64,000 nt of DNA, taken from an uncultured delta proteobacterium (GTDB lineage Bacteria; Desulfobacterota; Binatia; Binatales; Binataceae). Both the position numbers and the translations under genes were made by a program. This document shows, piece by piece, positions 3,169-27,358 of this stretch (position 1 is its first letter; every line of letters begins with the position of its first letter). The notes under the pieces are model-generated. The model had not been told where the DNA came from and did no database searches. It was given only the letters and a program-made list of their open reading frames with translations. The stretch covers positions 1-64,000 of the forward strand of contig CAVXXK010000005.1 of NCBI GenBank assembly GCA_963765675.1, in the 5' to 3' direction.

Positions 3169-3231
<63 letters not shown>

Positions 3232-3564
3232 CCGGCCAGAGCAGCACCTGTTTTTTCGCCTTCAGCCGATTAGACCGAGCCTGAAATCGAATCCAATTTC
3301 CGGTTTTTCCCAGCTTAATGGGGTGTCAATCTACAGAGACGTCGGACGGGCCCGCTCCTGCGCCACCGAGTCTCGGTAGGAATCTTCGGCTCGAACCTCA
3401 ACGATGGACTCGACGCGCAGTGGCAAGATTCACGGAAAGCGCTCGTGTACGAGCTAAAAAGGACCGTCCGATAGTGTCAGGCCAGTCGTGAAACACCGCT
3501 CGGCAGTTGTAGGCCGCCCGGAAAGCGCTAGGCTTGGAGCAGGATCGAATAAGCGGCTAGAAGA

Positions 3565-4533
3565 TTGCGACTGTACAGACCACAAACAGCGTCCGGCACC
3601 CTGACCAATGACAATCAATCAGCCATAAGGCTTTTGGATCTGGCTCCGGCAACTTTTGCCAAGGCCTTCAACCGCGAACCATTTCTGCTACACCATAATC
3701 TTGCCCACGATCCCCTGCTGCAACTCGATCGTTTGGTCGAACTCGCCCTGCGACTCGAGGCTATCCCGGGCGAGGTCTATTTCGACGTCGCGGTGGATCG
3801 GGTTGACCAGCGATGGGACCAGACCCCGCGCCCGCCGCTAACGATTGAAGACGTTATCAGAAATATTGGCGAATCGAGGGCTTGGATTATTCTTCGGCGA
3901 GCCGACCTCGACCCTCGTTACCGGGCATTGCTTGAACAATGTATGACGGAACTCAGAGATGCTGGTGGCGGCGAATGGCCCCGGAAGATGCGCGTACAAA
4001 ACGCGATCGTATTCATCACGTCTCCCGCACGCATCACGACTTACCATATCGATCGAGAATGCAACTTTATCCTCCAAGTTCGAGGAGAAAAGATGCTCTA
4101 TGTCTTCGATCAGAATGATCGCGAAGTTCTGCCCGAGGAAGAGCTGGAGCGTTTTTGGGCGGCTGACAACAACGCGGCAAAATATAAAGCTCGATACCAG
4201 CACCGTGCGAGAGTATTTCATCTGCGGCCGGGCGACGGCGTCCACGTTCCGGTGAACGCGCCGCACTGGGTCCAAAATGGAGACGATATCTCGGTTACCC
4301 TGAGTGTGAACTTTCAGTTCAAAGATACCTATCGGGCCGATAAATACCGCGCAAACTATTACTTGCGGCGGCTTGGCGTGACTCCGTTATCGCCCGACAA
4401 CTCCTCGCTGCGCGACGCCCTTAAGGTCTCGGTTGTCCGTGGTGCTTCAATACTTGCCAAGCCATTCAAAGTGTTCCGTTCCTGGGCGACAGGCGGCGAG
4501 GCTACTTCCAGGCCGATAGATCGCGCTCTATAA
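3565..4533 (+). CDS. JmjC/cupin-like Fe(II)/2-oxoglutarate oxygenase
   Basis: FITSP..TTYHIDRECNFILQVRGEK and LRPGDGVHVPVNAPHWVQNGDDISVTLS give an HxD...H triad. The start codon is uncertain. Confidence 0.8.
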   Translation: MRLYRPQTASGTLTNDNQSAIRLLDLAPATFAKAFNREPFLLHHNLAHDPLLQLDRLVELALRLEAIPGEVYFDVAVDRVDQRWDQTPRPPLTIEDVIRNIGESRAWIILRRADLDPRYRALLEQCMTELRDAGGGEWPRKMRVQNAIVFITSPARITTYHIDRECNFILQVRGEKMLYVFDQNDREVLPEEELERFWAADNNAAKYKARYQHRARVFHLRPGDGVHVPVNAPHWVQNGDDISVTLSVNFQFKDTYRADKYRANYYLRRLGVTPLSPDNSSLRDALKVSVVRGASILAKPFKVFRSWATGGEATSRPIDRAL

Positions 4534-5350
4534 GCTTTTCGAGAGCTTCAACCTCGGATCGCAACAGATCGGCAAGATGTTTCCTTGTATCCGGGCCAAC
4601 TGGAGCAAATTTCTCGCCCCCTCCGCGGCAAAACTCAAAAAAACCGCTTCGGACGAGAAGATCGATCGTTCGGTAATACTCGCGATTCTGAAGCGTCCAC
4701 CTGACCTTCAGTGCAAGCCGCGCGAGAAGCACGCTTTTAGGGGCTGACTCAAACGAATTTATGGTCACATCGTCGAGTGGGAGCGGTTGAACGTGCGGTA
4801 CTTCTATGAAATCACAAATCCGGTCCAAAAAAGCTCCTTCATTGGCACAGAGATCGTCATATAAACAGACTAACACCTGTCCGGTTTCGAAACGCTTCAG
4901 CCACCGTGCCAGGTGCGAGGCGTACCGGCTGCCGTCGATCATCGCAGGATTCAAGACCAGGGCTTGCTCGAACGTAACATCACCGAGATACGCACAATGC
5001 CGCAGCATCTTATACTGCGAGTATGCCCGGTCGACCGGGTTGCGCAGTGTAACGATTATTTTGCAATGAGGAAGATCGCGAGCGATCCGATCTAGTACGT
5101 CTTGACGGTGAAAATAAGTAGGACAAAACTCACCGATTCGCCGACCGGCCGGGCAGTTGCGAAAATAGCCAGCATACCAAGTCAGCGATCGATCGTAGTA
5201 CAAATCGAAGAATCGGCTTTCTTTGCTTAGAGGAAGGCCGACCTGATTCTTTAGTTGTTCGTGCAGCCAGGTTGTCGCCGTTCGAATTGGACCTACTCCG
5301 ATGAAATCAGGAAGTCGCGGCAAGCCGCTTTCATTCGGTATCGAATCCAT
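4502..5350 (-). CDS. PAPS-dependent sulfotransferase
   Basis: 5'-PSB-like PDFIGVGPIRTATTWL, KESRFFD and 3'-PB LRNPVDRAYS. Confidence 0.88.
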   Translation of the reverse strand: MDSIPNESGLPRLPDFIGVGPIRTATTWLHEQLKNQVGLPLSKESRFFDLYYDRSLTWYAGYFRNCPAGRRIGEFCPTYFHRQDVLDRIARDLPHCKIIVTLRNPVDRAYSQYKMLRHCAYLGDVTFEQALVLNPAMIDGSRYASHLARWLKRFETGQVLVCLYDDLCANEGAFLDRICDFIEVPHVQPLPLDDVTINSFESAPKSVLLARLALKVRWTLQNREYYRTIDLLVRSGFFEFCRGGGEKFAPVGPDTRKHLADLLRSEVEALEKLIERDLSAWK

Positions 5351-5409
5351 ATGCGGGCGATCGAGGAGCGAAAAGTGAGACCAGACAGTAACTCCTGCCT
5401 GACAGCATT

Positions 5410-6270
5410 TCAGATGGACGCTGGCGATCCTTCGCTATCGTTCCGAAAGTACATTCCGGAATAGGCCTTGACGGTGCGTTCGGGGTGAAACGGGATGATG
5501 CAGGAAAATTCCGGTGTTTCCCAGCTGTCGATTAAAGAATATCCAAGTTCTTCGAAAGCTCTAATGAAAGCGGTCCGGCCGTATATTTGGTACACACAAA
5601 TAGCCGGACCCAAATTGTGCAGCGTCGCAAAAGAACGGCCCTCGCATAACGGAGTTCGATTGATCAGAAGGTGTCGGGGTTTCGAAGGCATTTTTGATAG
5701 CGAGCGCCACAACGGAACCTCCAGAAACTGAAGCGAGCCCGACGCAAAAAGAACGTCCGCGCCTGAACCGTCTTGAATCTCGGTCGTAAAACACAACCCA
5801 TGCGTCTTCATCTGCTCCGCCAGTTTGCGTCCGTAAATCGCGGTCGCAGGAACTTCACAGACGCGCCAAACCATCCCAGCCGGGTATTCGAGGTATTTGT
5901 GAAATGAGTAGAAAGAAATACCGACATTGCCTCCGAAGTCGAACACTGTTGAATTTTCTTTGAGAAGTGGGGAAAGCCAATAGAGAATTGGATAGTCACT
6001 AGGCCAAAGCTGATCTATTTCGGAAGTGTGGCGGTTGGCCACCTCCGGATGGTCGTGTCCAACTCTGGAACCAACCGGAATGGCGTTTCGCGCCGTCTCA
6101 AAGCTGTCATATACTCCGGCAAACATTCGTGCCTTCGGACACTCATGACCAAAATGCTGTTCGTACTCAAATCGATGCCACGCGCGTAGGGGAGGTAGCC
6201 TTTCTTCAAGGGCGTTGACCAACGAACGAACCGCGCGCGACTGGAGAAGCGAACTTGCTAACTTTGCCAT
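5410..6270 (-). CDS. SAM-dependent methyltransferase (TIGR04325/LIC12133-like)
   Basis: WPSDYPILYWL, VFDFGGNVG motif I, ASGSLQFL and LLINRTP. Confidence 0.75.
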   Translation of the reverse strand: MAKLASSLLQSRAVRSLVNALEERLPPLRAWHRFEYEQHFGHECPKARMFAGVYDSFETARNAIPVGSRVGHDHPEVANRHTSEIDQLWPSDYPILYWLSPLLKENSTVFDFGGNVGISFYSFHKYLEYPAGMVWRVCEVPATAIYGRKLAEQMKTHGLCFTTEIQDGSGADVLFASGSLQFLEVPLWRSLSKMPSKPRHLLINRTPLCEGRSFATLHNLGPAICVYQIYGRTAFIRAFEELGYSLIDSWETPEFSCIIPFHPERTVKAYSGMYFRNDSEGSPASI

Positions 6271-6275
6271 TGCTA

Positions 6276-9200
6276 TTATCGATGTGACTGCGCAAGCCGC
6301 CGCATCGGACCGCCGGACTTACCCAGATTGTCTGTCTGTCCAGCTTGAAGACCGAAATGTTGGACCGAGCCGAGCGCCGCCGGAAGCTCGGATCGAGAAG
6401 GAAGTTGGCCAACCATGCAAAACTCCAGCTTTTGCGCAAGGGCTTGGGCATTGGGACCGGAGGTCATGTCGTCGTGATCGCCGGGTACCTCGTGCACCTC
6501 GACGCCTCCCGAGGCGAGTCCGCCCCAGCCTAACTGATAGTCCTTTATGCTTACCTGGGAATCCGGACGCGTGCGCAAAAGAGTCAAGTGTCCCGGATAT
6601 AACTGAGGCGTATAGTGAGCGGCAGCGAAGGCGTTGATGTCATGCATAGTTCCAATATGTTGCGGAACGGTCCGTCCCAACGCACGGTAGACTTCATAAA
6701 TGATTTTAGTGACCCGCTTCTTCACGGCCGTGCGCGCATACTGCCATCGCCCCGGGCCGCGCAGCACCATGCCGATCCGCGACCGGTAGCGATCCGATCT
6801 TCGCCCTCGCGTCCATCGATTTGAGTGACTGCCAGTGGTAGTGCCATTCGGGAGAATCTAGCAGGGCCAAAAGACCAATAGTGTCTCCTTGCTGTATTAA
6901 TTGGCGCCCCATTTCAAAAGTAACGAGGCCGCCGAACGAATACCCGGCTAGATAGTAAGGACCTGACGGCTGCTTTGTCTTGATTTCGCGAATATAGTGC
7001 GCCGCCATATCTTCCAGACGAGTCAGATATGGTTGCGACCCGTCCAGACCCGGTGGCTGCAAGGCAAACAAGGGACGGTCCGGGTGAAGGTAGCGCGTCA
7101 AGTCATTAAAGCGAATTACGTTTCCGCCAAGGCCGGAGATTATGTATAGCGGCGGGAGCGAACCACTGTGCCGGATTGCTACCAGTGACGACGACGGCGG
7201 CCTCCATCCATCCTGGCGCAAGATTTCAGCGAGCCCCTGGATGCTCGGTGTATCAAGCAGTGTGGATAGGGGCAACTTGGTCCCCCAACGCTGATTGATC
7301 CTCGAGAACAGCCGCATAGCAAGTAGCGAATGACCGCCGAGATGAAAGAAGTTGTCAGTAACCCTGATTTGTCGGACCCCGAGAACCTCCTCCCAGATTT
7401 CGATCAGCTCCGCTTCGAGCGAATCGCGATGTGCCTTGGGCAGGTGAGTGCGCTCGCTGTCGATTGCATCTTCTGTAGCCAATGCAGATCGACTTACGTG
7501 GCCATCCACATCTATCGGCAGCGAGTCTACGAATCGGAACTGAGAGACTTGAGGACCATCTGGAAAAGATTCGGCTACTCGTTTCTTCAATCGCACCTCT
7601 AGTTCGCTTAAGGGCTTCGAAAAGGCAATCCGGGCATCAACCACTGCGTAGACTTCAACCTGCTGGCATTCCGAGGCCCGCCCACATGGCACCGCTAGGA
7701 CTTCCGACAGCGACGGTTCGAGCATCAGGGCCGCTTCCAACTCGCCCACGTGGGTCCGGAAGCCGCCAATATTGACGTGTCGGCTGGACGGACCTAAAAC
7801 GTCGATTTTGCCGTCGGACAAATAACGCCCCAGTTCGCCCGTCCTGAACCACGTTCCATTGAGCGCTTTGGAAAATCGAAAACTCGCCGCAGTAGATTTC
7901 TCGTCGCCCAGGTAGCCGCTCGCGAGTTCCGGCCCTGCGATACATATCATCGCCGGCACGCCCGCGGGCACCGGCTGCATATTCTCGTCGAGCAATCGAA
8001 TCGCGAACCCTGGCGATGGAACGCCCAGAGTCAGGGCCTGATCTTCAACTCTGCCCTCGCTCCGCGCTTCAAAGATCGCCGCATGGTGCGACACTTCAAC
8101 GCCTCCGTACGACACGAGCAGACGAATCTGTCCTCGCGCGACGCGTTGAAATGCAGCCACCGCGAGTTTCGACGGTCTGTCACCATAAAGGACAATCTTC
8201 TGAACGCATTGCGGAAAATCACGTCTCTCTTTCCCACCGCGCAATATCATGCGCTGCCAGAATCGAGTCGGCAGGATCAGCACACTGCATCGATGTCCTT
8301 CAACGAACTGCCGATAACGCGCGTCTGACTCCAATACGGTCGAAGGTACAAAAACGATCGTGGCGCCAGCAATCAGCGATGAGAACACAAGCTCAACAGC
8401 AGGCGTCGAGTTAATCAATGCGATTCGATCCTCTGCGCGCAAACCGTAGGTCTCGACGCCCGTCCATGCGCGGACATCAAACGCGCGCTGGCTGACTTGT
8501 GCTAGCTTTGAGTCGCTCGACGTCGACGATACCAACTGAATGATCGCCGTACGCGCGCCGTCCTCTTTGGACGACGTTCTCAGTGCGGCACACTCCGCGT
8601 TCACGTGCGTTTCATCGACACACACCACTTGCAGCCCGCGTCGGCGAAAAAGTTTTCGCCACCTTCTGCAAGTGATGACCGCCTTGATGCCATGCTCGTT
8701 CAACGCGCCCACACCGGCATTTTTCGAATCATCCGCGGGCAACAGCATAAACGCGGCACCGGCCTTGCCGGCCGCCAGCATGCCAATCACTAGATCTGGC
8801 AAATAGTCACTACAAATCGCGATTGTTCGGCTCGGAGCCAAATCCACTTTAACTAGCCGGCTCGCGAGTTGACTCGCACGATGATCAAGTTGCCCGTAGG
8901 TTAAAGTCTCATTGCCGGATATTATCGCTACTGCTTCAGACTTTTGACGAGCGAACGATTCAATCCGACTGAGCGCCGGCTCGTGCTTCGCCGTTGCGGC
9001 GCCGAGACCGGCGCGGGAAATCATCTCGGACTCGTCAGTAGTCAGAATCGGAATTTGATTGATCCGCTGCTCCGGGTCGCAGAGAACGCAGTCTATGATC
9101 TGTTGAAAATGGCCGAGCATTCTCCGAGCCGTGCTCGCGTCAAACAAATCGGGCTTATATTCCAATCGCGCAACGATCTCTCCGTCGCGCTCAAACGTTG

Positions 9201-11874
9201 CTAAATGGAGATCGAATTCGGTTCCAGAGCAATGCCACGTGATCGGAGTCCAACGACACTCCTGAGTCTGTATGGTCTGCAAAAAGGCGACCTGATGAAA
9301 GAAATAGAATTGGAACAACGGATTGCGGCCTTGTATCTGCTCGACCTGTAGCTCGTCGACCAGATAGCGAAACGGTAAGTCCTTATGAGCCAACGCTTCT
9401 AGAGTCACCTCTCTGATGCGATGCACCAACTCGCTGAAAGAAGGATTTCCGTGAAGGCTGGTCCGCAGGCTTATCGGATACGCGAAGGATCCAACGATGC
9501 TCTCGGCGTCATCTGTCCGGCCCGACACGGGCGAACCTACTAAAATATCTTCCTGTCCGGTATAGCGTTTCAGCATCAACTTGAAGATCGCCAAGAAGAG
9601 CATGAAGGTCGTGATCTCCTCGCGTTTACAGAAGTCCTTCACAGCAACGACAGAAGCTCCGGCTATGTGGACGGTTTCGGTCGCACCTCGGGATACGAGT
9701 GCTGGCCGAAGCGGTCGGTCGCCCGGCAGATCGAGCAATGGTAGCCGGCCTTGAAGCTGCTTTTTCCAGTAGCTGAGGTACGGTTCAAAGTCGGCATTTT
9801 TGAGCCACTCGCTCTGCCAGTGCGAAAAGTCCGCGTACTGGAGAACGGAATCAGAAAGCGGCGAAGCCAAACCCTGTGAGTATGCGTCGTAGAGCGTGGT
9901 CAATTCGCGAACCACGATTCCGCTGGTCCATCCGTCGCAAACTATATGGGGCATCGTGAGCATCAAGATGTGCTCGCGCTCCTCCAGCTGGATAAGTCCC
10001 GCGCGAAAAATTGGACCTTGCGCGAGATTAAATGGCCGAACTGCCTCCTCACGAATCAATTCTTGCGCCCTAGATTCTCGCTCGGTCTCGGAGGCGATTC
10101 GGAGATCCACCACTTCTAAGCTCGCGTCGTAGGGCGGGTGAATCACTTGCATCGGTTCGTCGTTCAACACGGAAAAAGTGGTCCGCAGCATCTCGTGACG
10201 CTTCACCAGATCCGTAAGACATCGGCGAAGCACAGTCGGGTCCAAGGTACCACTGACCCTGAGCACTGCCGGCATATTGAGCATCGGATTACCCGGCATC
10301 AACTGCTCGAAAAGCCAAAAGCGCTGCTGGTTGATAGTGATCGGAAGGGCGTAGCTATCAGACGCGGGCGACTCCGTCCCATCAGAGGCGTTGAGTGCTG
10401 TGCCACAAGAAGAGGCGTCTAACGAGTCGGACGTTCCGCGATTCGGAGCTAACAGACCATCTAGAATTGCGCTCGTTCGCGTCGCCGGGAGATCAGTAGC
10501 TGTTTCCGACTTCGCTGGAACCAGCGCCAGCTGAAGTTCTGAGATCCGCTGATCTGGATTTCCTGCGACGCGCTCGAGCGTACCGCGATAGTTATCGAGC
10601 AATCCGCCGATAGTGCTAGGTTCGAATAGATCAGTATTGTATTCGCACGAGAGACGCCACCCCTCTGTGCGCATCACCAGGAAAATATTCAGTTCGTAGG
10701 GCGCGCCCTGCGATTTCGAGGGTATTGTGGTCAGCGTGATCCCTGAAAACTCCAGCGGTATGACCGCGTCGCGCTCGCAAATGAAGTTCAGCGGACAAAG
10801 GCCATGATGGCTCGGATAAACTTGAGGCTGAACCTCGGCAAGCAATTGTTCAAAGCGAAGGTTCTGGTTCACAAGCGATTCGGTTGCAGTCTTTTGTACG
10901 CGGCGCAGCAATTCGCAAAAGCTTGGATCGCCGGAAACATCGAACCGGAGAATCACCGTGTTGATAAATAATCCGACCAGCGGCTCGAGGTCCAGGCTAT
11001 CGCGTCCCGCTACTTGCGTGGACACTCCGAAGCTTGTTTGCCGCGTGTAGTGAAACACGAGGATGGCGAGGGCGGCCGCTGTAATCTGGAAAAACGTGGC
11101 ACCTTCTTGATTAGCTATATGACCAAGGGAGTCACTGAGTTCCATTGGAAGCAGCGTCGATACGATCGCGGAATTGTAGGTTGGACGTTCAGATCTTGGA
11201 CGGTCCGTAGGAAAGGTCGCAACGGGAAGTTGTGTTAGCTGTGTTCTCCAGTAAGAAAGATCATTTTTTACTTGTGCATCCTGCAAATGGTTGTGTTGCC
11301 AGATTGCATAGTCACCGTACTGAATCGTAAGTGGAGCAAGGTGCGGCTCCAGACGGTGGGAATATGCCGTGTAGAATTCTGCAAGTTCCTTTGCGATGAC
11401 GCCGATCGACCAGTAGTCAGCAATCGAGTGATGAATCGTGAGAGTCATCACATAGTCGCAATCGCCGGCCTGCAGAAGACGGGCCCGCAGCAGAGGTCCG
11501 GCAGCCAAATCGAAGTGCTGATGTGCTGCCTCGAGGCAACGGCGGTCAACCGTGTCGGCGCGCTGAGCTTCAGGGAGGTGTCGGAGGTCTTCCATGGATA
11601 GCGTCACCGCCATCGAAGGAGCGATGATCTGAGATACGCGCCCATCGACGGTCGCGAGATTGGTTCGCAGGACCTCGTGGCGCTGGACGATTCCTTGTAG
11701 AGAGCGCTCGAGTATGGCCGGATCGAGCGGTCCCCGAAGTGCAAACCGCACAGCGAGATTCCATGCCGGATTGCCCGGACTTAGGCGGTCCAATGCCCAG
11801 AAACGTTCCTGTGCGAGCGATGCGGGCAGGACGTAGGTATCTCCGTGATCGAGATTCGTCGCATCACTGCTCAT
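6276..11874 (-). CDS. NRPS termination protein C-C-A(degenerate)-T-TE (frameshift near 6790 splits the TE)
   Basis: C1 HHSIADYWS, C2 PHIVCDGWT, T FFHLGGHSLL and TE GYSFGG are present. The TE C-terminal VHEVPGDH is in ORF 6276-6770. The A domain lacks the A3 and A10 motifs. Confidence 0.9.
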
Positions 11875-11902
11875 AAACGAACCTCATACTGGATTGTTAG
11901 GC

Positions 11903-17900: not shown

Positions 17901-20107
17901 TCCCGAGCCGTATCCATCATGCTCGAATGGAACGCGTGAGAGGTCCGCAGCCGCTGGCAGACGATTCCCTCGCTCCCAAGCCGCTGCTCCAGTTCCGCGA
18001 TCGCTTCGCAGGGCCCCGCGACCACGGTGAGTGATGGACCATTGACCGCCGCGAGGTTCGCAGCGGGACCGATAAAGCGCGCGACATCATCCTCGCTCAG
18101 TCGGACCGATAGCATCGCTCCCCGAGGAAGGTCGTGCATCAAGGCGCCGCGCCCGGCGACCAGCTTAAGCGCGTCCTCGAGAGAAAAAACACCTGCCATG
18201 CATGCTGCGACGAATTCGCCAATGCTATGGCCGATCATTGCCTGTGGACGAATACCTAATTGAAGCCAGAGCTGCGCCAATGCGTATTCGACGACAAACA
18301 GCGCAGGTTGCGCGATGGCAGTATCGTTGATTTCTTCGTCGGTTGGCAATGTATAGTTGGAATCAAACAGATTTCTCAGATTCGGTCCCGAGCCTGCGAC
18401 GAGGATCTGCAGACAAATGTCGACTTGCTTCCGAAACTCAGGCTCGGCGAAGTATAGTTGCCGCCCCATCCCAACGTATTGCGATCCCTGTCCAGGGAAC
18501 ATGAATGCGACCGCGAGACGATTAGACGGTGTGATCCGTGTGAGTACTCGTCGGCTGCCGCCTGCCAGCACCGTTACCGCGTCAGCGGTGTCGTGAATCA
18601 CGGTCATTCGACGGGCCTCGAAAGAATGACGGCCCATCATAAGTGTATATGCAACGTCGGCTAATTCAGCAGTCGGATTGGCCACCAGACTATCGGCCAA
18701 GTTCGACGTCGCCGCGTTGAGTGCGGCCTCGGTTTTGGCGGACACCAATATCAGGTGGGCCCCACGCCTCGACTTTGTGGCGAGAGCTTCCGGCGCCTCT
18801 TCCATGACTACATGCGCGTTTGTGCCGCCGATTCCAAAGGCGCTCACGCCCGCGCGTAGGGGCGTGGTGCCGCGCTGCCACGGCGAGAGGGCCGTGTTCA
18901 CATAGAACGGCGAGTCTTCCAGATTCAGTTTCGGATTGGCGCTCTCGAAGTGCAATGTCGGCGGCAACATCCGATGATGCAGCGACATCGCGGTCTTAAT
19001 CAGCCCGGTCACTCCCGCCGCAACGTCCAGATGCCCAACGTTGGTCTTTGCCGTACCCAGCGCGCAGAACTGCCGCCGCGTGGTCGAACGTCGAAAGGCC
19101 TGTGTCAGTGCGGCAATCTCAATCGGATCGCCGAGCGGAGTTCCAGTGCCGTGCGCCTCGATATATGAGATCGAGGCCGGGTCCACGCCGGCCGCGGAAT
19201 GTGCCATCGCGATTGCGCTGGCCTGGCCGTCGACTCCTGGTGCGGTAAAGCCGACCTTTGCGGCGCCATCGTTGGTTACTCCGAATCCTTTAATCACGGC
19301 GTAGATCCGATCCCGGTCGGCAACCGCCTCCTGAAAACGTTTCAGGAGAACCACCGCGGCGCCATCACCGAAAACTGTGCCCTGGCTCGCGGCGTCGAAG
19401 GTTCGGCAATGACCATCGGGCGATACCATCCCTCCCGGCTCGTATAGGTAGCCGCGCCTCTGCGGAAACGTGATCGAAACGCCGCCGGCTAGCGCCATAT
19501 CACATTGATAGTTCTGCAGGCTGAGACATGCCTGCGATACGGCGACCAGTGAAGTAGAGCATCCGCAGTTAAGTGAGAATGCAGGTCCGCGCAAGTTCAG
19601 TTTGTAAGCGACCCGGGTCGGCAGAAATTCGAAATTGCTGCCCAGCGTAGTAATAAAGTTACTTACCTGATAACCGGCCGTATACTGAGAGATGTCATCG
19701 CGATTCGAGCATACGTGTTGTGCGAAGTAGCTATTGAAACTGCACCCCGCGAACACCGCGGTAATACCCGTGTACACCAGCGGGTCATAGCCGGAATCTT
19801 CGAACGCATGCCAGCAGCACTCCAAAAACATCCGCTGTTGAGGGTCGATCAGCTCAGCCTCTTTCGGATAAATGCCGAAGAACGCGGCATCAAACTTGTC
19901 GGCATCCTCGATGATCGCGCGCGCGCGCACGTAGTTGGGCATCCCGGAAACCGCTGCGGCGTCATCGATTTCGAGCTCCCCCGGCGCAAAGTGAGTGATC
20001 GATTCAACGCCCGCGCATAGGTTGCGCCAGAACTCGTTGATGTCCCGAGCTCCCGGGAATCTGCCGGCCATCCCGATAATCGCGATGTCAGTCAGAGCGT
20101 CACTCAT
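11903..20107 (-). CDS. Hybrid PKS-NRPS KS-AT-ACP-aminotransferase-C-A(Gly)-T
   Basis: KS: CGCSTSL, EAHGTGT, NVGHLD. AT: GHSIG and HAFHS (malonyl type). ACP: GFDSL. Class III aminotransferase: FDEVVTGFR, YGKVLGGG. C: HHIVCDG. A: YTSGSTGKPKG, hand-read code DILQLGMIWK. T: LGADSL. Confidence 0.95.
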   Translation of the reverse strand: MSDALTDIAIIGMAGRFPGARDINEFWRNLCAGVESITHFAPGELEIDDAAAVSGMPNYVRARAIIEDADKFDAAFFGIYPKEAELIDPQQRMFLECCWHAFEDSGYDPLVYTGITAVFAGCSFNSYFAQHVCSNRDDISQYTAGYQVSNFITTLGSNFEFLPTRVAYKLNLRGPAFSLNCGCSTSLVAVSQACLSLQNYQCDMALAGGVSITFPQRRGYLYEPGGMVSPDGHCRTFDAASQGTVFGDGAAVVLLKRFQEAVADRDRIYAVIKGFGVTNDGAAKVGFTAPGVDGQASAIAMAHSAAGVDPASISYIEAHGTGTPLGDPIEIAALTQAFRRSTTRRQFCALGTAKTNVGHLDVAAGVTGLIKTAMSLHHRMLPPTLHFESANPKLNLEDSPFYVNTALSPWQRGTTPLRAGVSAFGIGGTNAHVVMEEAPEALATKSRRGAHLILVSAKTEAALNAATSNLADSLVANPTAELADVAYTLMMGRHSFEARRMTVIHDTADAVTVLAGGSRRVLTRITPSNRLAVAFMFPGQGSQYVGMGRQLYFAEPEFRKQVDICLQILVAGSGPNLRNLFDSNYTLPTDEEINDTAIAQPALFVVEYALAQLWLQLGIRPQAMIGHSIGEFVAACMAGVFSLEDALKLVAGRGALMHDLPRGAMLSVRLSEDDVARFIGPAANLAAVNGPSLTVVAGPCEAIAELEQRLGSEGIVCQRLRTSHAFHSSMMDTAREPFLRLLDPVRISIPEIPFLSSVTGDWITAREATDPEYWANHLRLPVRFSIGAAKLRAEDFALLEVGPGNTLSVLARQHQANNPDQLVIASMPGRNGQQTEEESVLNALGQLWLHGAQPNWSQIYAGDSRRRVSLPLYPFERKRFWCGPRPAARNADTLAGQEDSSRTSSTEKSGSDLESYKASLHASVNGQRPEDARAAGSSEGTAIQSPRLETRKARILSRLECIFEDLSGLRLGDAASGVTFLEFGFDSLFLTQVSQMLHAEFGLKITFRQLLDQLATLDALAAYLDEKLPPQALPSGASDIAELESSRSEHQLPCSNEAGPAGGTRAATRPADAAVASAGGGPDLQLLFKTQLQTLSDLMAKQLEVLRNTETKAFVAVPDQITDPRTVHVATAQREPVDGLNGSAAVKLHGPTPRKFIPFVPVEAGKARELTPLQSQHLRALVESYSRKTAGSKRLTQQHRSHLADPRVAAGFRLQWKEIVYPIVTVRSSGSKLWDVDGNEYIDLVNGYGPIMFGHAPDFVNRAIREQLDHGYETGPQSPLAGKVADLICDMTGMERVTFCNTGSEAVTAALRVARTITARSKIVLFTGAYHGMFDEVVVKGVNGPNGPRSLPVAPGIPREKVENVIVLDYGTPEALRYIEAHAGELAAVLVEPVQSRHPALQPIDFLKEVRRITRQSGTALIFDEVVTGFRVHRGGCQALFGIKADLAIYGKVLGGGLPIGVLAGTSAFMDALDGGTWNYGDNSYPETGVTFFAGTFVRHPLALAAAFAVLNHLNTAGPELWEHLANKTTHMADALNALFEEREVQAHVDTFGSIAYFTLPAELIHAGLLYYYLRARGVHIQEGFPLFLTTAHSDEDIARVIQAFRESVLEIQAAGFLPAPHSEPMELPRNGSVSHLNGNGITPEPPEPGLTSIKENTHTVPVRQAPLTESQKEIWLSAKLSEQASCCYNESFTLKLRGNLDVAAFLAAVDRVVARHEALRAKFDANGEYQQFVPDPKLVIPIVDLTPLDGQSREKRLAQFIADDARSPFDLERGPLVRANLIVVRPGEYRFIFTAHHIVCDGWSTNIILDEVRRLYNAACAGRSYELPEPMTFGAYAESQAKHFQSSNLSALETYWQEQFSTLPAFLELPLDRPRPATRSYEGATCRLRIPAESYRDIKLAGAQQKCTLFVMLLAAFQILLSRLSGQEDIVIGIPAAGQAALDGESLVGHCVNFLPLRGEVVNSLSAAQYLAQVRRTLLDAYEHQNYTYGRLIRKLPIKRDPSRLPLTEVQFNLERMGSGIEFSGLELTIEPNAKSFVNQDLFLNIIESADGLMLDCDYNTGLFDQATIERWLGHYATLLGAMSADPNQRISSLPLLSTAEHQRIIASWNDTQAEFPTERCVHQLFEAQAQRTPDAVAVVYEGRQLTYFELNHRADQLARHLQKLGVGVGMLVGVFVERSLDMVTALLGVLKTGAAYVPMDPTYPAERISFVLEDAKVPILLTQESLARSVPPGSRRVLYLDSHWSAITREDSENDPRPTVSSEDLAYVIYTSGSTGKPKGVEIPHRAVVNLLHSMSKTPGLGCHDTLLAVTTLSFDIAALEIFLPLTVGAKMVIASRAEASDGSQLLARLRQSGATAIQATPVTFALLIEAGWAERSTLKVLCGGEALSRELATQLLERTSSVWNMYGPTETTIWSSAIRVEPGPGPVPIGFPIDNTQFYVLDQAGQLAPIGCDGELYIGGAGVARGYLHQQALTSEKFIRDPFRVDGNERLYRTGDRVRRLTDGTLEFVGRFDNQVKLRGFRIELGEIESALAKHPGVTGAAVILREDTPGDRRLVAYVVSNQQALTVTAVREFLIGKLPDYMLPSAVVRLDSMPLTPNGKLDRCALPAPATVQFSRSHEFVGPRTASERTLAEIWAEILHLERVGIRDDLFELGADSLHIFQIAARATRAGMRVAAPLFFKYRTIEGLLAHAENENQNGTTIPMPAIVPVSRAKYRLSQTIVPDQKVGSS

Positions 20108-20149
20108 TGCAATCGATTCCGTTTGGACTCCATCATTTGAATCCGCGGA

Positions 20150-22252
20150 TCACCCCGCGCGTCGCGACAGCATTTCGCGCTGACGCCGAGCCCGAAGTTG
20201 CAGATCGTTGCCGACCGGCGAAAATTGGCTGTCGCCGCTCAGATGCTCGGCGAGGGTCGCAACGGTCGGGTATTGAAACAGATCCGTGATTATCAACTTT
20301 TCGGCGAGCAAGCGCTGCAGTTTGGAGTGGACCTCGATCAGTTGCAGCGAATCACCACCGAGGTCGAAGAAGCTCGTGTCCACCTCAACCGCCGGCAGAT
20401 GCAGGACATCGCGCCAGACCGAAGAGATTGTCGTTTCGATTTTGCTCAACCGCCCCGTGGGTTCTCGATTGGATTGTGAGGCCACCGCGTCTTCGCGAAG
20501 CCGCACGAGCGCATCACGATCGATCTTGCCATTGCGAGTCAGCGGAATTTCAGCGACCGCCACGAACGCCGCCGGGATCATATAGTGCGGCAGCTTCTCC
20601 ATAAGAAATGCGCGCAATTCTTGCTGCGCGGGTGCAGGGAACGAATGCGGCGTTACATATGCGACCAACCGCTTTTCCTCGCAGGTATCTTTTTCCGCCA
20701 CGACCACGGCATCGCGGATGGCCGGATGCTGGCGCAGGGTCTCGGCAATCTCACCGGGTTCGATTCGATATCCAAATATTTTGACCTGATCGTCCATGCG
20801 TCCCAGAAATTCAAGGGCGCCATCGGCGCGATACCGGACGAGATCGCCGGTGCGATAGAGGCGCTGCGAGGACTCCGCGGCCCAGGCGGGCACCACAAAT
20901 TTTTCCGCAGTCAGATCGCCCTGGTTCAAGTACCCTCGAGCGACTCCATCACCACCGATGTAGAGCTCTCCAACTTCTCCCACCGCCACCTGATTGAACT
21001 CGGAATCCAGCACCCACACCGGGGTTCCGGCGATCGGAAATCCGATTGGAACCGAAGGTCCTTCCAGATATTCCGGGTGCGCAGTAAGACACACCGCAAA
21101 GGTCGTCGCCTCTGTCGGGCCATAACCATTTACGAGCCGGCAACCGGGCAACGCCGCGACCGCGGTGCGAAAATGCGCAAGCGATCCCGAATCGCCGCCA
21201 GTTACTAACTGCTTGAGTCGGCAGAGTGCATCTGGATGATGATCGATCATCAGATTGAACAATCCCGCCGGAAGCCAGACTGTGCTGATTTCATAACGGC
21301 GAATGGCCGCCGCGATATCCTCGAGCGCCGGCGTCCCCGGCGGCAGGAGCACCAGGCTGCCCCCGTTCAGCAAGGGTCCCCAGATTTCAAGTGTTGCCGC
21401 ATCGAAGCAGACTGGCGCTAACTGCATGAACCGCTGGCCGGCGTCGAACGATAGATAGTCCGTGTTTTTCACCAGGCGAATGACGCCGCGATGTTCGATC
21501 AGGACGCCCTTGGGCGAGCCGCTCGAGCCCGAGGTGTACATCACGTAGACAAGGTTGTTAGCAGCGACCCGTGCATTGAGATTAGCTCCGTCGCGTAATC
21601 CGATCGCGGCTGCTTCGCGATCGATTAGCAACAGCTTTGAGAGCTCATCCGGCAGTGACCCGATGCATGAGGAATCGGTGATCACGATCGGCGCGCGCGT
21701 ATCCCTCAGCATGAATGCAAGGCGCTTGCGGGGATAATCGGGATCAAGCGGAACGTAAGCGCCACCGGCTTTGAGTACCGCGAGCATGGCGACCACTAAG
21801 TCGAATGAACGGCGCAGACAGACGCCGACCAATACTTCAGCCTGCACGCCCTGTGGGGCCAGATGGCGGGCCAGGCGATTGGCGCGCTCATTCAACTCAC
21901 GGTATGTGATTTGCTCATCGCCCAGGATCAGCGCGATAGCCTCGGGGTTGTGAGCGGCCTGCTGCTCAAACCATCCATGGACCGTAGCGAGATGACTCTT
22001 TTCCGTACGCCGCCCGATGTCAGCCATTCGGCATTGGCCGTACCTCGATAGTGACGCTGACGATTCCGCACCCTTTACCATGCGCACGCTACGGCCCCAA
22101 TTTGCCCGCGGTCTGTTCGCGTTCAATTCCGAAATCGCTTCTGACATTTCCAGCTCTAGCGACGCGGGTACGGTCTGCCCGACTCGGCAAGACTCTCTCC
22201 TTGCACCCGAATAATCTCTCCGCGACGATGCCGCGTTGGCAGGCCGTTGCAA
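20150..22252 (-). CDS. NRPS loading didomain A-T (Val-like specificity)
   Basis: YTSGSSGSPKG, NGYGPTE, YRTGDL, NGKIDR and T FFDLGGDSL are present. Hand-read code DALWVGGTFK. The true start is probably downstream (~22147 or ~22020). Confidence 0.9.
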   Translation of the reverse strand: MQRPANAASSRRDYSGARRESCRVGQTVPASLELEMSEAISELNANRPRANWGRSVRMVKGAESSASLSRYGQCRMADIGRRTEKSHLATVHGWFEQQAAHNPEAIALILGDEQITYRELNERANRLARHLAPQGVQAEVLVGVCLRRSFDLVVAMLAVLKAGGAYVPLDPDYPRKRLAFMLRDTRAPIVITDSSCIGSLPDELSKLLLIDREAAAIGLRDGANLNARVAANNLVYVMYTSGSSGSPKGVLIEHRGVIRLVKNTDYLSFDAGQRFMQLAPVCFDAATLEIWGPLLNGGSLVLLPPGTPALEDIAAAIRRYEISTVWLPAGLFNLMIDHHPDALCRLKQLVTGGDSGSLAHFRTAVAALPGCRLVNGYGPTEATTFAVCLTAHPEYLEGPSVPIGFPIAGTPVWVLDSEFNQVAVGEVGELYIGGDGVARGYLNQGDLTAEKFVVPAWAAESSQRLYRTGDLVRYRADGALEFLGRMDDQVKIFGYRIEPGEIAETLRQHPAIRDAVVVAEKDTCEEKRLVAYVTPHSFPAPAQQELRAFLMEKLPHYMIPAAFVAVAEIPLTRNGKIDRDALVRLREDAVASQSNREPTGRLSKIETTISSVWRDVLHLPAVEVDTSFFDLGGDSLQLIEVHSKLQRLLAEKLIITDLFQYPTVATLAEHLSGDSQFSPVGNDLQLRARRQREMLSRRAG

Positions 22253-23780
22253 GGAGCCGGTCTGATTCCACTATTGGATTGGAGAGATGGTCGTAGCGAA
22301 TACTGCTGACGAACTGGAGCCACGGCTCCTGGCCCATCGCATATACGTAGAGCTCCCGGCAATTGAATTGCTCAACCAGGCCAAGCGCGCTCGAGTAGTC
22401 TGACGCGTTGGCTCGCCGCGACTGATCCATCGCTCGTTCCAACCGGCGGGTCAGCAACGGACCATAGATCCAGCTTAGCGGTGCGCCGTCACATTCCATG
22501 CCGATGAACATCGTCTCGACATCGCCAATTTGATCGTGCACGTTCCGATACAGCGCGGGACTCAGGTTGCGCGAGTCCGCCAATAGCAGCATCGAATGGC
22601 AGCCACCCCGAACCAACCATGCGGTTTTGCTTCGGATAGCAAGGTCGCAGTGTTCACCAGTGAATGGGATTGACTGGATGGAGCCGGAACCTAAGTCGAT
22701 CGTTTCCATTTCGTCGATTTCGCGCACGTGTTTGAAGCCGCATGCCTCAAGGATCAGTTTCAGCGAAGGATCCTGAAGGGCACCGCCCGAGTTTTTAGGT
22801 ACCAGGATGGTCCCGATTCGGTCCCGCAACTGGAGCAAAGTTTCCAGCAGGACATGATCTTGATGCGCGTGCGTGAGCAGGACAAAGTCGATCGATTCAG
22901 GCAGGTCTGCGTAGGTGAATCGCTCGGACGCACCGTCGAAAGCGTAACCGATCGCCGGATCGGTGAGAATCGAGAAGTCACTGCTTTCAATAAGGACACA
23001 TGCATGGCCGAAATATTTCCAGCTAACACCGGGCCCTTTATAGCTTGTAGATTTGCGGGGCTTTTCGTCTGTCAGGAATGACCTCAGGATAGCGTTGTTA
23101 TGCTCTGATAGACCCAACACATCCCGAATTTCGCTGAAGGATGCCGGCTGGGACTTGAGGCGATATAAAGCGTCCACTGCGGCGCCGGCAAAGCGCACCC
23201 TCCAATTGATCGAATCCGGACTGGCGAGCCGCGGGGTGCTGAAAATGAACGGCCGACCGTCGTCCTTGATTGCCGAAAGCATCAAGCTCTGGCCGTTCGG
23301 ATCGTAGTATCGACTTGCATAAAGCAGCCGTTCGATAAACCTGTACGACGCCTGATTTTGAAGATCGTAGCCGAGCTCAACGTAGCCCTGGAGCGCGGCC
23401 GGGACTAAACGATACAAGGGCTCCAGCGAGTACCCTTTCGCGTGATCGGTCAGCAATGAATCGAGCTGGCCAATCGCGGCGGATAGCTCAATCAAATTAT
23501 GCCGCGCAGCAATCGTATGATCGCGCAAAGCGGAAATTTCGGCGATTCGGGCATGCTCGAAACTCATGAACGGGCCGCCCGCCAGGTTTGGATCGCGTGC
23601 CGCTGCCGCGTGGCCATCTGGGTTGCTTAAGTAAGACTCCATTATCCGCAGATGACGCTCAGTCAGATTGCGGGCGGAGGTTGCAGGCGCGACCAAATGC
23701 GGCCAAGCGTACCACTGATCGATCAGCGGTTCGACTGCGATATTTGGCCGCAGGTATAGCTTGTCGGTACTACGATGCAC
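22089..23780 (-). CDS. CmlA-like diiron metallo-beta-lactamase-fold beta-hydroxylase
   Basis: N-terminal LRPNIAVEPLIDQWYAWPHLVAPAT, YFGHAC, THAHQDH, GEHCDL, LADS, GMECDGAPLSW and YVYAMGQEPW. Confidence 0.85.
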   Translation of the reverse strand: MHRSTDKLYLRPNIAVEPLIDQWYAWPHLVAPATSARNLTERHLRIMESYLSNPDGHAAAARDPNLAGGPFMSFEHARIAEISALRDHTIAARHNLIELSAAIGQLDSLLTDHAKGYSLEPLYRLVPAALQGYVELGYDLQNQASYRFIERLLYASRYYDPNGQSLMLSAIKDDGRPFIFSTPRLASPDSINWRVRFAGAAVDALYRLKSQPASFSEIRDVLGLSEHNNAILRSFLTDEKPRKSTSYKGPGVSWKYFGHACVLIESSDFSILTDPAIGYAFDGASERFTYADLPESIDFVLLTHAHQDHVLLETLLQLRDRIGTILVPKNSGGALQDPSLKLILEACGFKHVREIDEMETIDLGSGSIQSIPFTGEHCDLAIRSKTAWLVRGGCHSMLLLADSRNLSPALYRNVHDQIGDVETMFIGMECDGAPLSWIYGPLLTRRLERAMDQSRRANASDYSSALGLVEQFNCRELYVYAMGQEPWLQFVSSIRYDHLSNPIVESDRLLATACQRGIVAERLFGCKERVLPSRADRTRVARAGNVRSDFGIEREQTAGKLGP

Positions 23781-23900
23781 CGTGGTTTACGCCTTACTTC
23801 GTCATTAGAAACCTGATCTCATAAGCCATCCTCTGTCGCAGTTCCGCACCACGTGCCGCCCGTCCTCAGCGGATTGCAGACAAAGCTCCTCGAGCGGTGC

Positions 23901-24758
23901 CTAACGCGCCGCCGATGCACCAACGGCTCGGGAGGGTCGTACAAGTCGTGAAGGATCAAGCTGCGTGAGCGGTTGCCGCCTCTCGGGCTTTGAATAGGCG
24001 GGCACGGCCTGAACCTGGCTTCCGACCTGTGTTTGGTTCCCGTTTGTGCCGAAGTTCCACTTGTTCAGCAAAAGGTATTGCTTCCCGCTGCGGCTCAGCA
24101 GTCCTGCTTCGGCCATTTCTGCGACCAGGCGGCTGACCATTGGTCTCGAGCACCCCATCATCTCAGCCAAATCCTCATGTGCGAGGTCAGGAATCAGGAT
24201 GGTTCCGCGGGCATCCTTTACCCCGAACCGCAGCGCCAGATCGCTCAGCACCACCTCAAGGCGCTGCCAGAAAGGCAGGTTGAGCAGTGTCGCGAACCAA
24301 CGAAGATTCTGTGACCAGAAGGTATTTAGCGCCTGCAGAATTTCCACCAGCACCTCAGGTTCCAAGCCGCGTAGCAGGCGCGCCACTTGGTCACGGTTGA
24401 TCAGCGCCACCGTGCATTTGCTCGCGCTTTGCACCTCGAAGAGCTGCGCACGTCGCGCCTTGGTATCGATATAATCGGCGTAGCCGATCAGTTCACCAGG
24501 TCCAGCCAAGCGCACCAATGTGCGGTTGCCGTCAGCGACCGAGCAATAGACCTTGACGAAGCCGCTGAGAACGCAACCGAACAGATCATTGGTCGAGCCC
24601 TCGCTCAGGACCAAGACGCCTTTCTCGAAATTGACCGCTAAGTTGCGCTCGACGATTTCGTCCGTGAATTCGGCGGAGATACCCCACGTAGCAAGATTGT
24701 TCCGAAGATGGGAAAACGCGTCGGCATGCATGCGGTTTGGGTTTGAGTTCAACTTCAT
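23901..24758 (-). CDS. Crp/Fnr family transcriptional regulator
   Basis: cNMP barrel (VLSGFVKVY..LAGPGELIG) and HTH LAHEDLAEMMGCSRPMVSRLV. RBS GGAGGAG precedes the ATG at 24758. Confidence 0.85.
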   Translation of the reverse strand: MKLNSNPNRMHADAFSHLRNNLATWGISAEFTDEIVERNLAVNFEKGVLVLSEGSTNDLFGCVLSGFVKVYCSVADGNRTLVRLAGPGELIGYADYIDTKARRAQLFEVQSASKCTVALINRDQVARLLRGLEPEVLVEILQALNTFWSQNLRWFATLLNLPFWQRLEVVLSDLALRFGVKDARGTILIPDLAHEDLAEMMGCSRPMVSRLVAEMAEAGLLSRSGKQYLLLNKWNFGTNGNQTQVGSQVQAVPAYSKPERRQPLTQLDPSRLVRPSRAVGASAAR

Positions 24759-25365
24759 TTTCGCCTCTCCTCCAAGCGCGATTATTTCAATTTTGGCATT
24801 TCCACCTCCACCTCCACCTCGTTGGCTTAGAGCGCCTATAAATACCTTTGAATGCCTATCACTTCTATTAGCGGCCTTACGGCTGCACACTCTACCTCCG
24901 AACTGCTTTGTATGTCCACGGTTAACAGTGGCTCTTCGATACCGCAGCATTAAATAGATAGATTTAGCTCCCCGTGTGACTAAAGGTGACGATAATGAGT
25001 AAAGTAAATCCAGCCTAACGGATCGAGCCGGATAGTCAATGAAAAATTTACGTACATCGTGACCATCAGACCTCAGAATTTAGTGAAATATGACAGAGGA
25101 ATTAGCGTCATGTTTCGAAAAGAGCTCCTGTCGGCTCGAGCCTGTCATCGTCTTGGTCTCCTCTGCTTGAAGCGATTCTCCTCAGCTATCCGCTCGCGTC
25201 GCCTACGCCGCGCAGCGTAGCCCTCAAGCTCCATAAAGCCCGCAGCTTCATGGCGGACTGCCAGACATTGGATCTCAACGGCGGGTATTGTTAAGGCAGA
25301 GGAGCAACGGCGATTTTTGCTCAAAGTAGCAACGCCGAACCCGTCCGGATTTGAAGGAGCCAACG

Positions 25366-25755
25366 ATGACGCCAGTTCCGAGCGGAACAGAACTCGCCCG
25401 CCCATTTATGCCGGCGAAAGACTTTGATCTCTCGAAGAACTTCTATGAGACGCTAGGCTTCGAAAAACTTCTCGACGGAGACGTGGCGATCTTCAGGGCC
25501 GGATCCAGTAGTTTCATCCTTCAGCGCTATTATCAGAAGGACTGGGCTGAAAACTTTATGATGCAGCTCATGGTTGACGATCTTGATGCCTGGTGGACGC
25601 ACATTGAGCGGCTTGATCTGCCGGGAAAATTCAAGGTTAAGCCTCCGCGCGCCCCGGCTATGCAGCCATGGGGCCTTCGGGTCGCTTATGTTTTCGATCC
25701 GTCCGGAGTGCTCTGGCACATCAGCGAACGGCGCGATGGCGCAATACAGGACTGA
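25366..25755 (+). CDS. VOC/glyoxalase family protein
   Basis: RPFMPAKDFDLSKNFYETLGF and QPWGLRVAYVFDPSGVLWH. Confidence 0.85.
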   Translation: MTPVPSGTELARPFMPAKDFDLSKNFYETLGFEKLLDGDVAIFRAGSSSFILQRYYQKDWAENFMMQLMVDDLDAWWTHIERLDLPGKFKVKPPRAPAMQPWGLRVAYVFDPSGVLWHISERRDGAIQD

Positions 25756-25785
25756 CGACCTGGCGCTCGCGAGAGTCCTGCTGAT

Positions 25786-26055
25786 TCAGGTTCCGAATCT
25801 TTCTGCGGCGCGAGCCTTCGCTTTTGCGGCCTCTTCTTCGCGATTTCTCAAGGGTGCAGCGGTTTCGAGCGAGCGAAGGAGACGCGCCGATATCCCCGCG
25901 ATTTCATCAACCGCAGTCAGGAAGGTGGCTTCGTTCGCCTTCGACGGTTTATTGAAGCCGCTGATTTTTCTCACGAACTGAAGCGACGCAGCACGAATCT
26001 CTTCAGACGTGACCGGCGGATCGAAATTGAAGAGGATTTTGATATTTCTGCACAT
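25786..26055 (-). CDS. DUF2277 family protein
   Basis: MCRNIKILFNFDPPVT.EEIRAASLQFVRKISGF signature. Confidence 0.85.
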   Translation of the reverse strand: MCRNIKILFNFDPPVTSEEIRAASLQFVRKISGFNKPSKANEATFLTAVDEIAGISARLLRSLETAAPLRNREEEAAKAKARAAERFGT

Positions 26056-26145
26056 TTCCTTCCCGCTCTCCGATGTCGCCTGCTATATCACCGATAGTGA
26101 ATTAACGTCGATAGTGGAGCGCTGTGACGCCGGAGACGATACGCG

Positions 26146-27154: not shown

Positions 27155-27177
27155 CCTGTCGCAACCGGGGAGGTCGC

Positions 27178-27346
27178 TCAGGCGCGAATCTTCTCGATCC
27201 AGGCGGCGAACCGTCGATCCGATCTCGACGATTTCGAGCCCGAGCTCCGCGGGCGCAAGCGCCGCGAGAGTCTTCGCAACCAGACGATTATACGAACCCT
27301 TGCGAAGACTCCCGACCAGCACTGCTACTTCCCGTCTGGCGCTCAT
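27178..27346 (-). pseudogene. Internally deleted NADPH-dependent FMN reductase (ChrR-like) remnant
   Basis: N-terminal VAVLVGSLRKGSYNRLVA..EIVEIG is joined directly to the typical C-terminal FAAWIEKIRA*. The central part is absent. Confidence 0.7.
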
Positions 27347-27358
27347 CGATCTCACCAG

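Follow-up and report, generated by a model that had tools for sequence, protein, structure and literature searches.

We describe a biosynthetic gene cluster in a 64,000-nucleotide (nt) stretch of DNA, hereafter the window (positions 1 to 64,000 of contig CAVXXK010000005.1, assembly GCA_963765675.1), from an uncultured bacterium of the family Binataceae. The cluster spans window positions 3565-24950 and, as defined by the listing of open reading frames (ORFs) and by profile searches, consists of an operon on the minus strand and one convergent gene on the plus strand. We consider it probable, though well short of certain, that this is a genuine hybrid nonribosomal peptide synthetase-polyketide synthase (NRPS-PKS) operon of a widespread, uncharacterised family, and that it works collinearly from a valine-type starter through malonate extension and transamination to glycine. 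An earlier note, made from the sequence alone, had set out the order of genes and of ketosynthase (KS), acyltransferase (AT), acyl carrier protein (ACP), aminotransferase (AMT), condensation (C), adenylation (A), thiolation or carrier (T) and thioesterase (TE) domains. The ORF listing, Pfam and NCBIfam place every one of these genes and domains where the note had put it. Its further remark that ketoreductase (KR), dehydratase (DH) and fatty-acyl ligase domains are absent also holds, as Pfam reports none of these, and no enoylreductase (ER), for the megasynthases. The genes, in window coordinates, are as follows.

3565-4533, plus strand: JmjC/Cupin_8 oxygenase, convergent (Pfam)
4502-5350, minus strand: sulfotransferase of the type using 3'-phosphoadenosine-5'-phosphosulfate (PAPS) (Pfam Sulfotransfer_3, 4.1e-14; Sulfotransfer_1, 1.2e-13)
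5410-6270, minus strand: TIGR04325-family S-adenosylmethionine-dependent methyltransferase (3.9e-59; 199.7 bits, cut-off 80)
6276-6791, minus strand: TE, C-terminal half, read in a second frame and carrying a GDH motif (translation; match to the orthologue in genome G005)
6706-11874, minus strand: C-C-A-T-TE ORF, 1722 amino acids (aa), its final stretch to 6706 out of frame (Pfam)
11903-20107, minus strand: KS-AT-ACP-AMT-C-A-T protein, 2734 aa (Pfam)
20150-22252, minus strand: stand-alone A-T protein, carrier motif GGDSL (Pfam; TIGR01733)
22089-23780, minus strand: CmlA-like non-haem diiron beta-hydroxylase (Pfam CmlA_N, 1e-83, and a metallo-beta-lactamase fold)
23901-24950, minus strand: Crp/Fnr-type regulator (Pfam cNMP_binding, 2.3e-11, and HTH_Crp_2, 6.9e-10; NCBIfam)

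Spacing between the operon genes is tight (5 to 120 nt in the ORF listing), the JmjC gene overlaps the sulfotransferase stop by 32 nt, and the ORFs of 2734, 1722, 700 and 563 aa are all open. Judged from the sequence, the regulator likely starts at the Met at 24758, and the true start of the A-T protein is probably near 22081, directly past the stop of the CmlA-like gene. A Pfam search with the methyltransferase (5410-6270) gave no match.

The 2734-aa protein carries the centre of the proposed pathway, and its domains, all on the minus strand, are:

18944-20089: KS (Pfam)
17669-18505: AT, with GHSIG and HAFH motifs (Pfam)
about 17018-17257: ACP (Pfam)
15359-16444: class III aminotransferase domain, AMT (Pfam)
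13790-15115: C domain, HHIVCDG
12296-13729: second A domain of the cluster, A2, code DILQLGMIWK
12023-12208: T domain after A2 (Pfam)

The Cys-His-His triad of the KS is complete (Cys in GCSTS, HGTGT at 319 and NVGH at 356), and the HAFH motif of the AT presumably denotes specificity for malonyl-CoA. A motif check found the Ser retained in the ACP, in both T domains of the megasynthases and in the carrier of the stand-alone A-T protein. Between the ACP and the C domain, residues 1222-1583 match Aminotran_3 (1.4e-50), and the closest solved relative is the aminotransferase domain of MycA (6kfm/6kfu; 2e-137, with 6kfm giving this value), in agreement with the suggestion that a MycA-type class III aminotransferase is embedded here. 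None of the 11 Pfam families reported for the protein is a KR, DH or ER, so the beta-keto group would reach the AMT unreduced.

We derived A-domain codes by profile alignment, with positions taken from the GrsA numbering and anchored on conserved motifs. The code of A2 corresponds to Gly, and the domain scores 450 bits against TIGR01733 (cut-off 317); DILQLGMIWK stands among the Gly codes in an excerpt of PMC12283262. At the level of the code, glycine thus appears to be the next residue, as had been proposed. Modules of the MycA type (also those of McyE, NdaF and microginin synthetase) share with the window the order KS-(AT)-ACP-AMT-C-A-T and the conversion of a beta-keto into a beta-amino group without a KR. 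They start, however, from an acyl chain of fatty-acid or polyketide origin and yield a beta-amino fatty acid, whereas the window has an amino-acid A-T starter with a Val-type code and, by Pfam, no fatty-acyl-AMP ligase in the operon. Because the starter is an amino acid instead of a fatty acyl chain, a vicinal (3,4-) diamine would arise.

Evidence for such a starter comes from the stand-alone A-T protein, whose gene lies directly upstream of the KS gene. Its A domain (A1) has the Val-type code DALWVGGTFK and scores 431 bits against TIGR01733, over the cut-off, which upholds the idea of a Val-like starter as far as a code can. The close variant DALWIGGTFK is among the commonest codes in a collection of domains that activate Leu, Ile or Val, and is cited among Val-domain sequences (excerpt of PMC12283262), and DAFWLGGTFK is listed as a Val code (excerpt of PMC9113097). 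Among relatives (80 related loci in our genome comparison), A-T and KS lie in one protein in 12 of 78 KS-bearing ORFs, up to a single A-T-KS-AT-ACP-AMT-C-A-T-TE protein at locus L067, and these fusions identify the A-T as the loading module of the KS. The conserved core of the family is [A-T] followed by [KS-AT-ACP-AMT-C-A-T], with the C-A-T part variable in relatives.

The neighbouring hydroxylase covers profile positions 1-231 of the 232 in CmlA_N, aligns over residues 5-529 with its best solved relative (PDB 8a90; 1.1e-132), matches CmlA itself at 2.5e-122 (4jo0) and keeps the HxHxDH metal motif as HAHQDH at residue 304. It shares with CmlA and 8a90 the CmlA_N and metallo-beta-lactamase fold, the metal motif and a neighbouring stand-alone A-T; it differs in its predicted substrate, which is of the Val type where that of CmlA is p-aminophenylalanine. 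Hydroxylation of Val by a CmlA-type enzyme appears in an excerpt of PMC12181424 only as a hypothesis, for the cryopeptin enzyme CrpA. Given its adjacency to an A-T in the window and in 13 related loci, the enzyme is expected to hydroxylate a carrier-bound amino acid. CmlA homologues occur in 14 of the 80 related loci, 13 of them with a readable starter code (L012 gave none): nine codes are Val-like and four read DAFFFGVTFK, and none of the eight loci with a Thr-coded starter has a homologue. This restriction by starter code suggests that a beta-hydroxylated starter is wanted in part of the family.

The terminal NRPS departs most from a textbook assembly line. Its domains, again on the minus strand, are:

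6811-11874: terminal NRPS, first reading frame (Pfam and motifs)
10525-11874: first C domain, Ca, HHSIADY
9019-10347: second C domain, Cb, PHIVCDG
7435-8961: degenerate A domain, A0 (Pfam)
7222-7410: terminal T domain, T3, GGHSL
6811-7152: N-terminal half of the TE, GYSFGG

The core motifs of A0 are lost (A3 reads SSTSSDSK, A5 YGGVEV and A7 FRTGE, and Lys517 of A10 is replaced by His), and its TIGR01733 score of 181 bits falls under the cut-off. The intact orthologues of G005, a second genome of the genus, and of locus L014 likewise have a degenerate A0 in which another residue stands for Lys517, which makes the degeneracy a family trait rather than a sign of decay. Outside the Binataceae its best matches are terminal A-like domains of cyanobacterial loci, at about 170 bits, as against 110 and 82 bits to A1 and A2 of its own cluster. 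With these domains it has in common an insertion with an LPTxFW motif, and they too mostly lack Lys517, with Q, D or N in its place. These matches, the insertion and the loss of Lys suggest that A0 belongs, as a diverged representative, to a separate class of A-like domains and is not a random wreck, and the cyanobacterial terminal A domains may themselves constitute a conserved Lys-less class. Nostoc loci (L059-L079 and others) have a third A domain at about 17-20 kb of the locus, with codes such as DTENMGALTQ; the P-loop of these cyanobacterial domains is partly degenerate and they are otherwise well conserved. That A0 is a decayed Gly domain was rejected as the leading idea, as its best matches outside the Binataceae are these cyanobacterial domains and not Gly-coded ones.

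After the Gly module, relatives continue with C-C-A-T, C-C-T-TE or C-T-TE, and in the locus comparison only the Binataceae versions (the window, G005 and L014) retain an A-like domain in the terminal module. Together with the C-C-A0-T-TE of the window, these arrangements make a natural set for studying how NRPS modules lose or outsource adenylation. Terminal modules that lack an A domain can be loaded in trans, as in the last module of yersiniabactin HMWP1; the window resembles HMWP1 in having a terminal carrier without a working A domain of its own and differs in keeping a degenerate A-like domain and two tandem C domains. For Ca, the best sequence matches in the PDB are ordinary C domains (Txo2, Txo1 and TycC). 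A dehydrating or recruiting role for it found no support, C domains of the AMB type matching far more weakly (AmbE, 5.7e-8).

These features can be assembled into a course of biosynthesis. A1 would load a Val-type amino acid onto its own carrier, where the CmlA-like diiron enzyme would hydroxylate the residue at its beta carbon; the KS would extend this aminoacyl starter with malonate, and the MycA-type aminotransferase would convert the beta-keto group to an amine, giving a 3,4-diamino-5-hydroxy-5-methylhexanoyl thioester. The following C domain would couple the diamino acyl unit to Gly loaded by A2, and the chain would move to C-C-A0-T-TE. There, because A0 with its lost motifs cannot adenylate, we propose that T3 is loaded in trans by A1 or A2, or merely hands the chain on to the TE. 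Decoration of the product by hydroxylation, methylation and O- or N-sulfation would fall to the JmjC oxygenase, the TIGR04325 methyltransferase and the sulfotransferase. Whereas the KS triad, the HAFH motif, the missing KR and the motif losses of A0 are read directly from the translations, each chemical step built on them is a prediction from sequence. The core of a 3,4-diamino acid followed by Gly, also put forward in the earlier note, is the straightforward collinear prediction from the two codes, the KS and AT motifs, the lack of a KR, the AMT and loading by the A-T; it is thus supported in silico and keeps its predicted status.

Of the tailoring enzymes, the sulfotransferase has as its nearest solved relatives heparan-sulfate 3-O- and N-sulfotransferases (about 2e-13 and weaker) and contains IRTATTW at 22 and RNPVDR at 103, which we take to be the 5'-phosphosulfate-binding (5'-PSB) and 3'-phosphate-binding (3'-PB) motifs of PAPS sulfotransferases. 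The window, G005 and L014 are alone in having a sulfotransferase inside the cluster (the three enzymes are 72-75% identical to one another), and the other paralogues in the lineage, several per genome, are at most 47% identical to the cluster enzyme. Elsewhere in the window's genome (G000), contig C6 holds four paralogues at 40511-46013 and 494722-495540, three of them in a tandem array and all 41-46% identical to the cluster enzyme; similar arrays are found in most genomes of the family, with a match in 23 of the 24 genomes searched, a tally that takes in the unpublished genome G010, on which none of our conclusions depends. The JmjC protein carries HID at residue 161 and another His further on, at 234; no solved relative was found at E <= 0.01, and a protein-atlas search returned generic JmjC/Cupin_8 clusters only. 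Its homologues occur in at least 24 of the 80 related loci, and those of the TIGR04325 methyltransferase in at least 13, cyanobacteria included, both counts being lower bounds because each locus extends no more than 10 kb either way. The genes behind the suggestion of a sulfated and hydroxylated product are therefore in place, and sulfation, hydroxylation and methylation of that product are predicted from gene presence alone.

The family to which the cluster belongs is large. We compared it with the 120 best homologous proteins from metagenomes and with the 80 related genomic loci (the L011 and G005 stretches are identical and were counted once). Among the 120 metagenome homologues, 109 combine KS, AT, PP-binding, Aminotran_3, Condensation and AMP-binding domains, at 52-78% identity. 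The related loci come from Binataceae-like metagenome-assembled genomes (MAGs), many Acidobacteriota, a Gemmataceae MAG, Bradyrhizobium rifense, two Chelativorans, Pedobacter and many cyanobacteria (Nostoc, Pseudanabaena and Microcoleus). Of the 70 loci with a readable starter code, 39 have a Val-like one; the next code is Gly-like in 35 of 73, and both features coincide in 17 of 66. The closest counterpart, in G005, has two tandem Crp regulators (79% and 78% identical), the CmlA-like enzyme (82%), the A-T (71%), the PKS-NRPS (77% over 2733 residues), the terminal NRPS (57%), the methyltransferase (72%), the sulfotransferase (72-74%; 75% in L014) and, at the same position, the JmjC protein (74%), beyond which lie a carbamoyltransferase, a further A-T and a KS-AT. 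In five loci of Acidobacteriota and Bradyrhizobium (L016, L027, L030, L031 and L032), an alpha/beta hydrolase of about 487 aa resembling platelet-activating factor (PAF) acetylhydrolase lies downstream of the TE. Close to some of the Acidobacteriota loci lie genes for sugar transferases, a GT4 and a DegT aminotransferase; a product attached to a surface glycan was considered on this ground and rejected, as these genes are not conserved across the family.

No characterised cluster of this architecture was found in the literature searched, which covered part of the open-access papers and no subscription-only ones, and the NCBIfam equivalogs for named synthetases all stayed under their cut-offs, in agreement with an orphan cluster on both comparisons. 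The earlier note had not recognised the architecture as a characterised cluster, and that stands; any sense that it is rare does not, given a large family spread over several phyla. The nearest published parallel is a PKS/NRPS line of Pseudanabaena galeata CCNP1313, with a putative course from Val through malonate (GHSI/HAFH) and an AMT to an NRPS and TE, presented as hypothetical in an excerpt of PMC11356792. The Pseudanabaena loci L051, L053 and L054 have the same fused C-A-T-KS-AT-ACP-AMT protein as that line, which differs from the window in its starter C domain, in working A domains throughout and in having neither CmlA nor sulfotransferase, and likewise lacks a known product.

Several observations weigh against the collinear course in a working operon. 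No known product was found for any member of the family, and no exporter gene was seen within the operon. A gamma-amino-beta-ketoacyl thioester with a free alpha-amine should tend to lactamise, and no step protecting that amine is obvious in the operon. By its motifs A0 appears catalytically dead, leaving the terminal module unable to load its own carrier; Ca and Cb both keep the second His, yet each departs from HHxxxDG, and the collinear course gives the two tandem C domains no clear role. The sulfotransferase need not act on a peptide, because it resembles carbohydrate sulfotransferases and has several paralogues per genome. The G005 cluster has a phosphopantetheinyl transferase (PPTase) between the sulfotransferase and the methyltransferase that is missing from the window cluster; a 38%-identical PPTase lies on contig C3 of the same genome. 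Finally, the TE is split over two frames by a +1-nt frameshift within 6792-6810: its Ser (in GYSFGG) lies in the first frame and its His in the shifted one, the last conserved residues of the first frame end at 6811 and the first of the second start at 6791, and a DNA alignment shows one extra base at 6792-6810 relative to G005, where the orthologous terminal NRPS is a single intact protein of 1878 aa.

The most serious competing explanation, which we nonetheless think unlikely, at roughly one chance in four, is that the window copy is a decaying, non-producing remnant with a real TE frameshift, a dead A0 and no PPTase in the operon. The split TE and the missing PPTase fit it, as does an A0 more degenerate than that of G005, where a TSGSSGGPK motif survives. 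Short, low-depth contigs from public short-read runs, the best of which shared 0.33 of sampled words with the stretch, show no indel near the site when aligned to the window, and run X1 partially covers the bin 6334-7000 at a depth of 1.74. If a contig spans the site this agrees with a genuine frameshift, but coverage of 6792-6810 itself by any contig is not evident from the alignment. Against decay stand the degenerate A0 of intact orthologues, the open state of all other ORFs and the out-of-frame half of the TE, which over 121 residues still shares 71% identity with the C-terminal end of the G005 protein and is so conserved to a degree similar to the rest of the operon. Contig C7 of the window's genome contains, at about 18400-33400 on the minus strand, a second NRPS-PKS cluster of five ORFs in different frames, where at least one 1-nt insertion interrupts an A domain near C7:23100; its breaks are either assembly indels or the marks of a second decaying cluster. 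This like insertion makes consensus indel errors in the assembly plausible, and the TE frameshift may be one of them.

Other readings accept a working cluster and change its chemistry or its novelty. The A-T and CmlA-like proteins could instead supply beta-hydroxy-Val in trans to the terminal carrier, the KS starting from acetyl or malonyl to give 3-aminobutyryl-Gly-(OH-Val). This would suit a terminal module without a working A domain, and NRPSs are known to supply a distant module from a stand-alone A-T and its tailoring enzyme (SyrB1/SyrB2/SyrC of syringomycin). We judge it improbable, since the A-T is fused N-terminally to the KS in the relatives counted above, also precedes the KS where all later modules have A domains of their own (as in cyanobacterial loci), and the KS has Cys and not the Gln of decarboxylating loading KSs; both uses of the A-T could, moreover, coexist. 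Much the least probable, and in our view very unlikely, is a monobactam like sulfazecin, in which the sulfotransferase would N-sulfonate the beta-amine, the TE would close a beta-lactam, and the oxygenase and methyltransferase would add a methoxy group. A sulfotransferase, an oxygenase and a methyltransferase beside an NRPS with a beta-amino group do mirror SulN, SulO and SulP, and the solved relatives of the sulfotransferase include N-sulfotransferases. The two sets are alike by gene type alone: the window has a PKS module, its amine-bearing residue is not C-terminal, since Gly and another module come after it, its TE has a Ser nucleophile and not the Cys of SulM, and no A code is of the diaminopropionate (Dap) type, the three being Val-type, Gly and dead. 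JmjC and TIGR04325 genes also recur in many relatives without a sulfotransferase, so the trio is not a conserved unit. That the family already holds a characterised member, making the window a homologue of a known pathway, has only a slim chance, comparable to that of loading in trans. Its size and its cultured genera (Bradyrhizobium, Chelativorans, Nostoc, Pseudanabaena and Pedobacter) favour it, as does the scope of the comparison, with about 1.7 million PubMed Central (PMC) articles, subscription-only papers and MIBiG outside it; the literature and equivalog results above speak against it, as does the sole paper on a line like that of the family, whose excerpt treats the P. galeata line as hypothetical.

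A wider reading, which we hold only tentatively and think more likely wrong than right, is that the collinear course extends to the whole group: a multi-phylum family making peptides built on a beta,gamma-diamino acid, with a sulfated product in the Binataceae and a non-canonical last step carried by the Lys-less pseudo-A domain and the tandem C domains. In the literature searched, we found no such building block described from a characterised pathway. If the reading is right, a simple route to peptides bearing a vicinal diamine, a motif prized in chelators and enzyme inhibitors, is common to Binataceae of soils, Acidobacteriota, some Alphaproteobacteria and many cyanobacteria, and the family molecule might be a small peptide, frequent in soils, that binds metals or targets proteases. 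The value of this particular window is lower: its cluster is one of many orphans, the genome that carries it is uncultured, and its TE may be broken.

The cluster itself is probably an accessory, horizontally acquired element. An AMT-PKS is present in 10 of 151 genomes of the family and in 2 of 11 of the genus, the window's genome included, and the genes flanking the G005 cluster map to contig C1 of the window's genome, not beside the window cluster. GC content is 0.52-0.59 in the cluster as against 0.60-0.62 to its right. To its left, at the contig start, lie conjugation (type IV secretion) genes on the minus strand, TrbI-like at 2-922 and CagX/VirB9-like at 1307-2434, which suggest an integrative conjugative element or a remnant of one. 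Between these and the cluster, at about 3175-3237 on the plus strand, is the 3' part of a tRNA-Ser(GCT), with anticodon loop, long variable arm, T arm and acceptor end, which looks like the remnant of an attachment site. A permissive Rfam scan placed RF04351 on the opposite strand of this fragment at 54 bits, under the gathering score of 68, and we read this match as the antisense of tRNA-Ser; ARAGORN found no tRNA in 1-30000, and the window gave no Rfam match at gathering thresholds. The patchy distribution, non-matching flanks, GC content, secretion genes and tRNA fragment together fit an accessory island that has moved horizontally.

To the right of the cluster, a redox block of higher GC content (26146-31559) encodes a luciferase-like monooxygenase, a short-chain dehydrogenase/reductase (SDR), an aldo-keto reductase and a flavin monooxygenase-like protein; it probably lies outside the cluster, because it is not conserved next to that of G005. 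Elsewhere in the window, all on the minus strand, are a fusion of a patatin-like phospholipase with a cyclic-nucleotide-binding domain (41453-43219), an RPE65-type carotenoid oxygenase (45015-46529) and two ATP-synthase alpha/beta-type subunits (54525-60349), and GC content dips to 0.54-0.56 at 50-54 kb around a gene resembling glycoside hydrolase family 30 (GH30).

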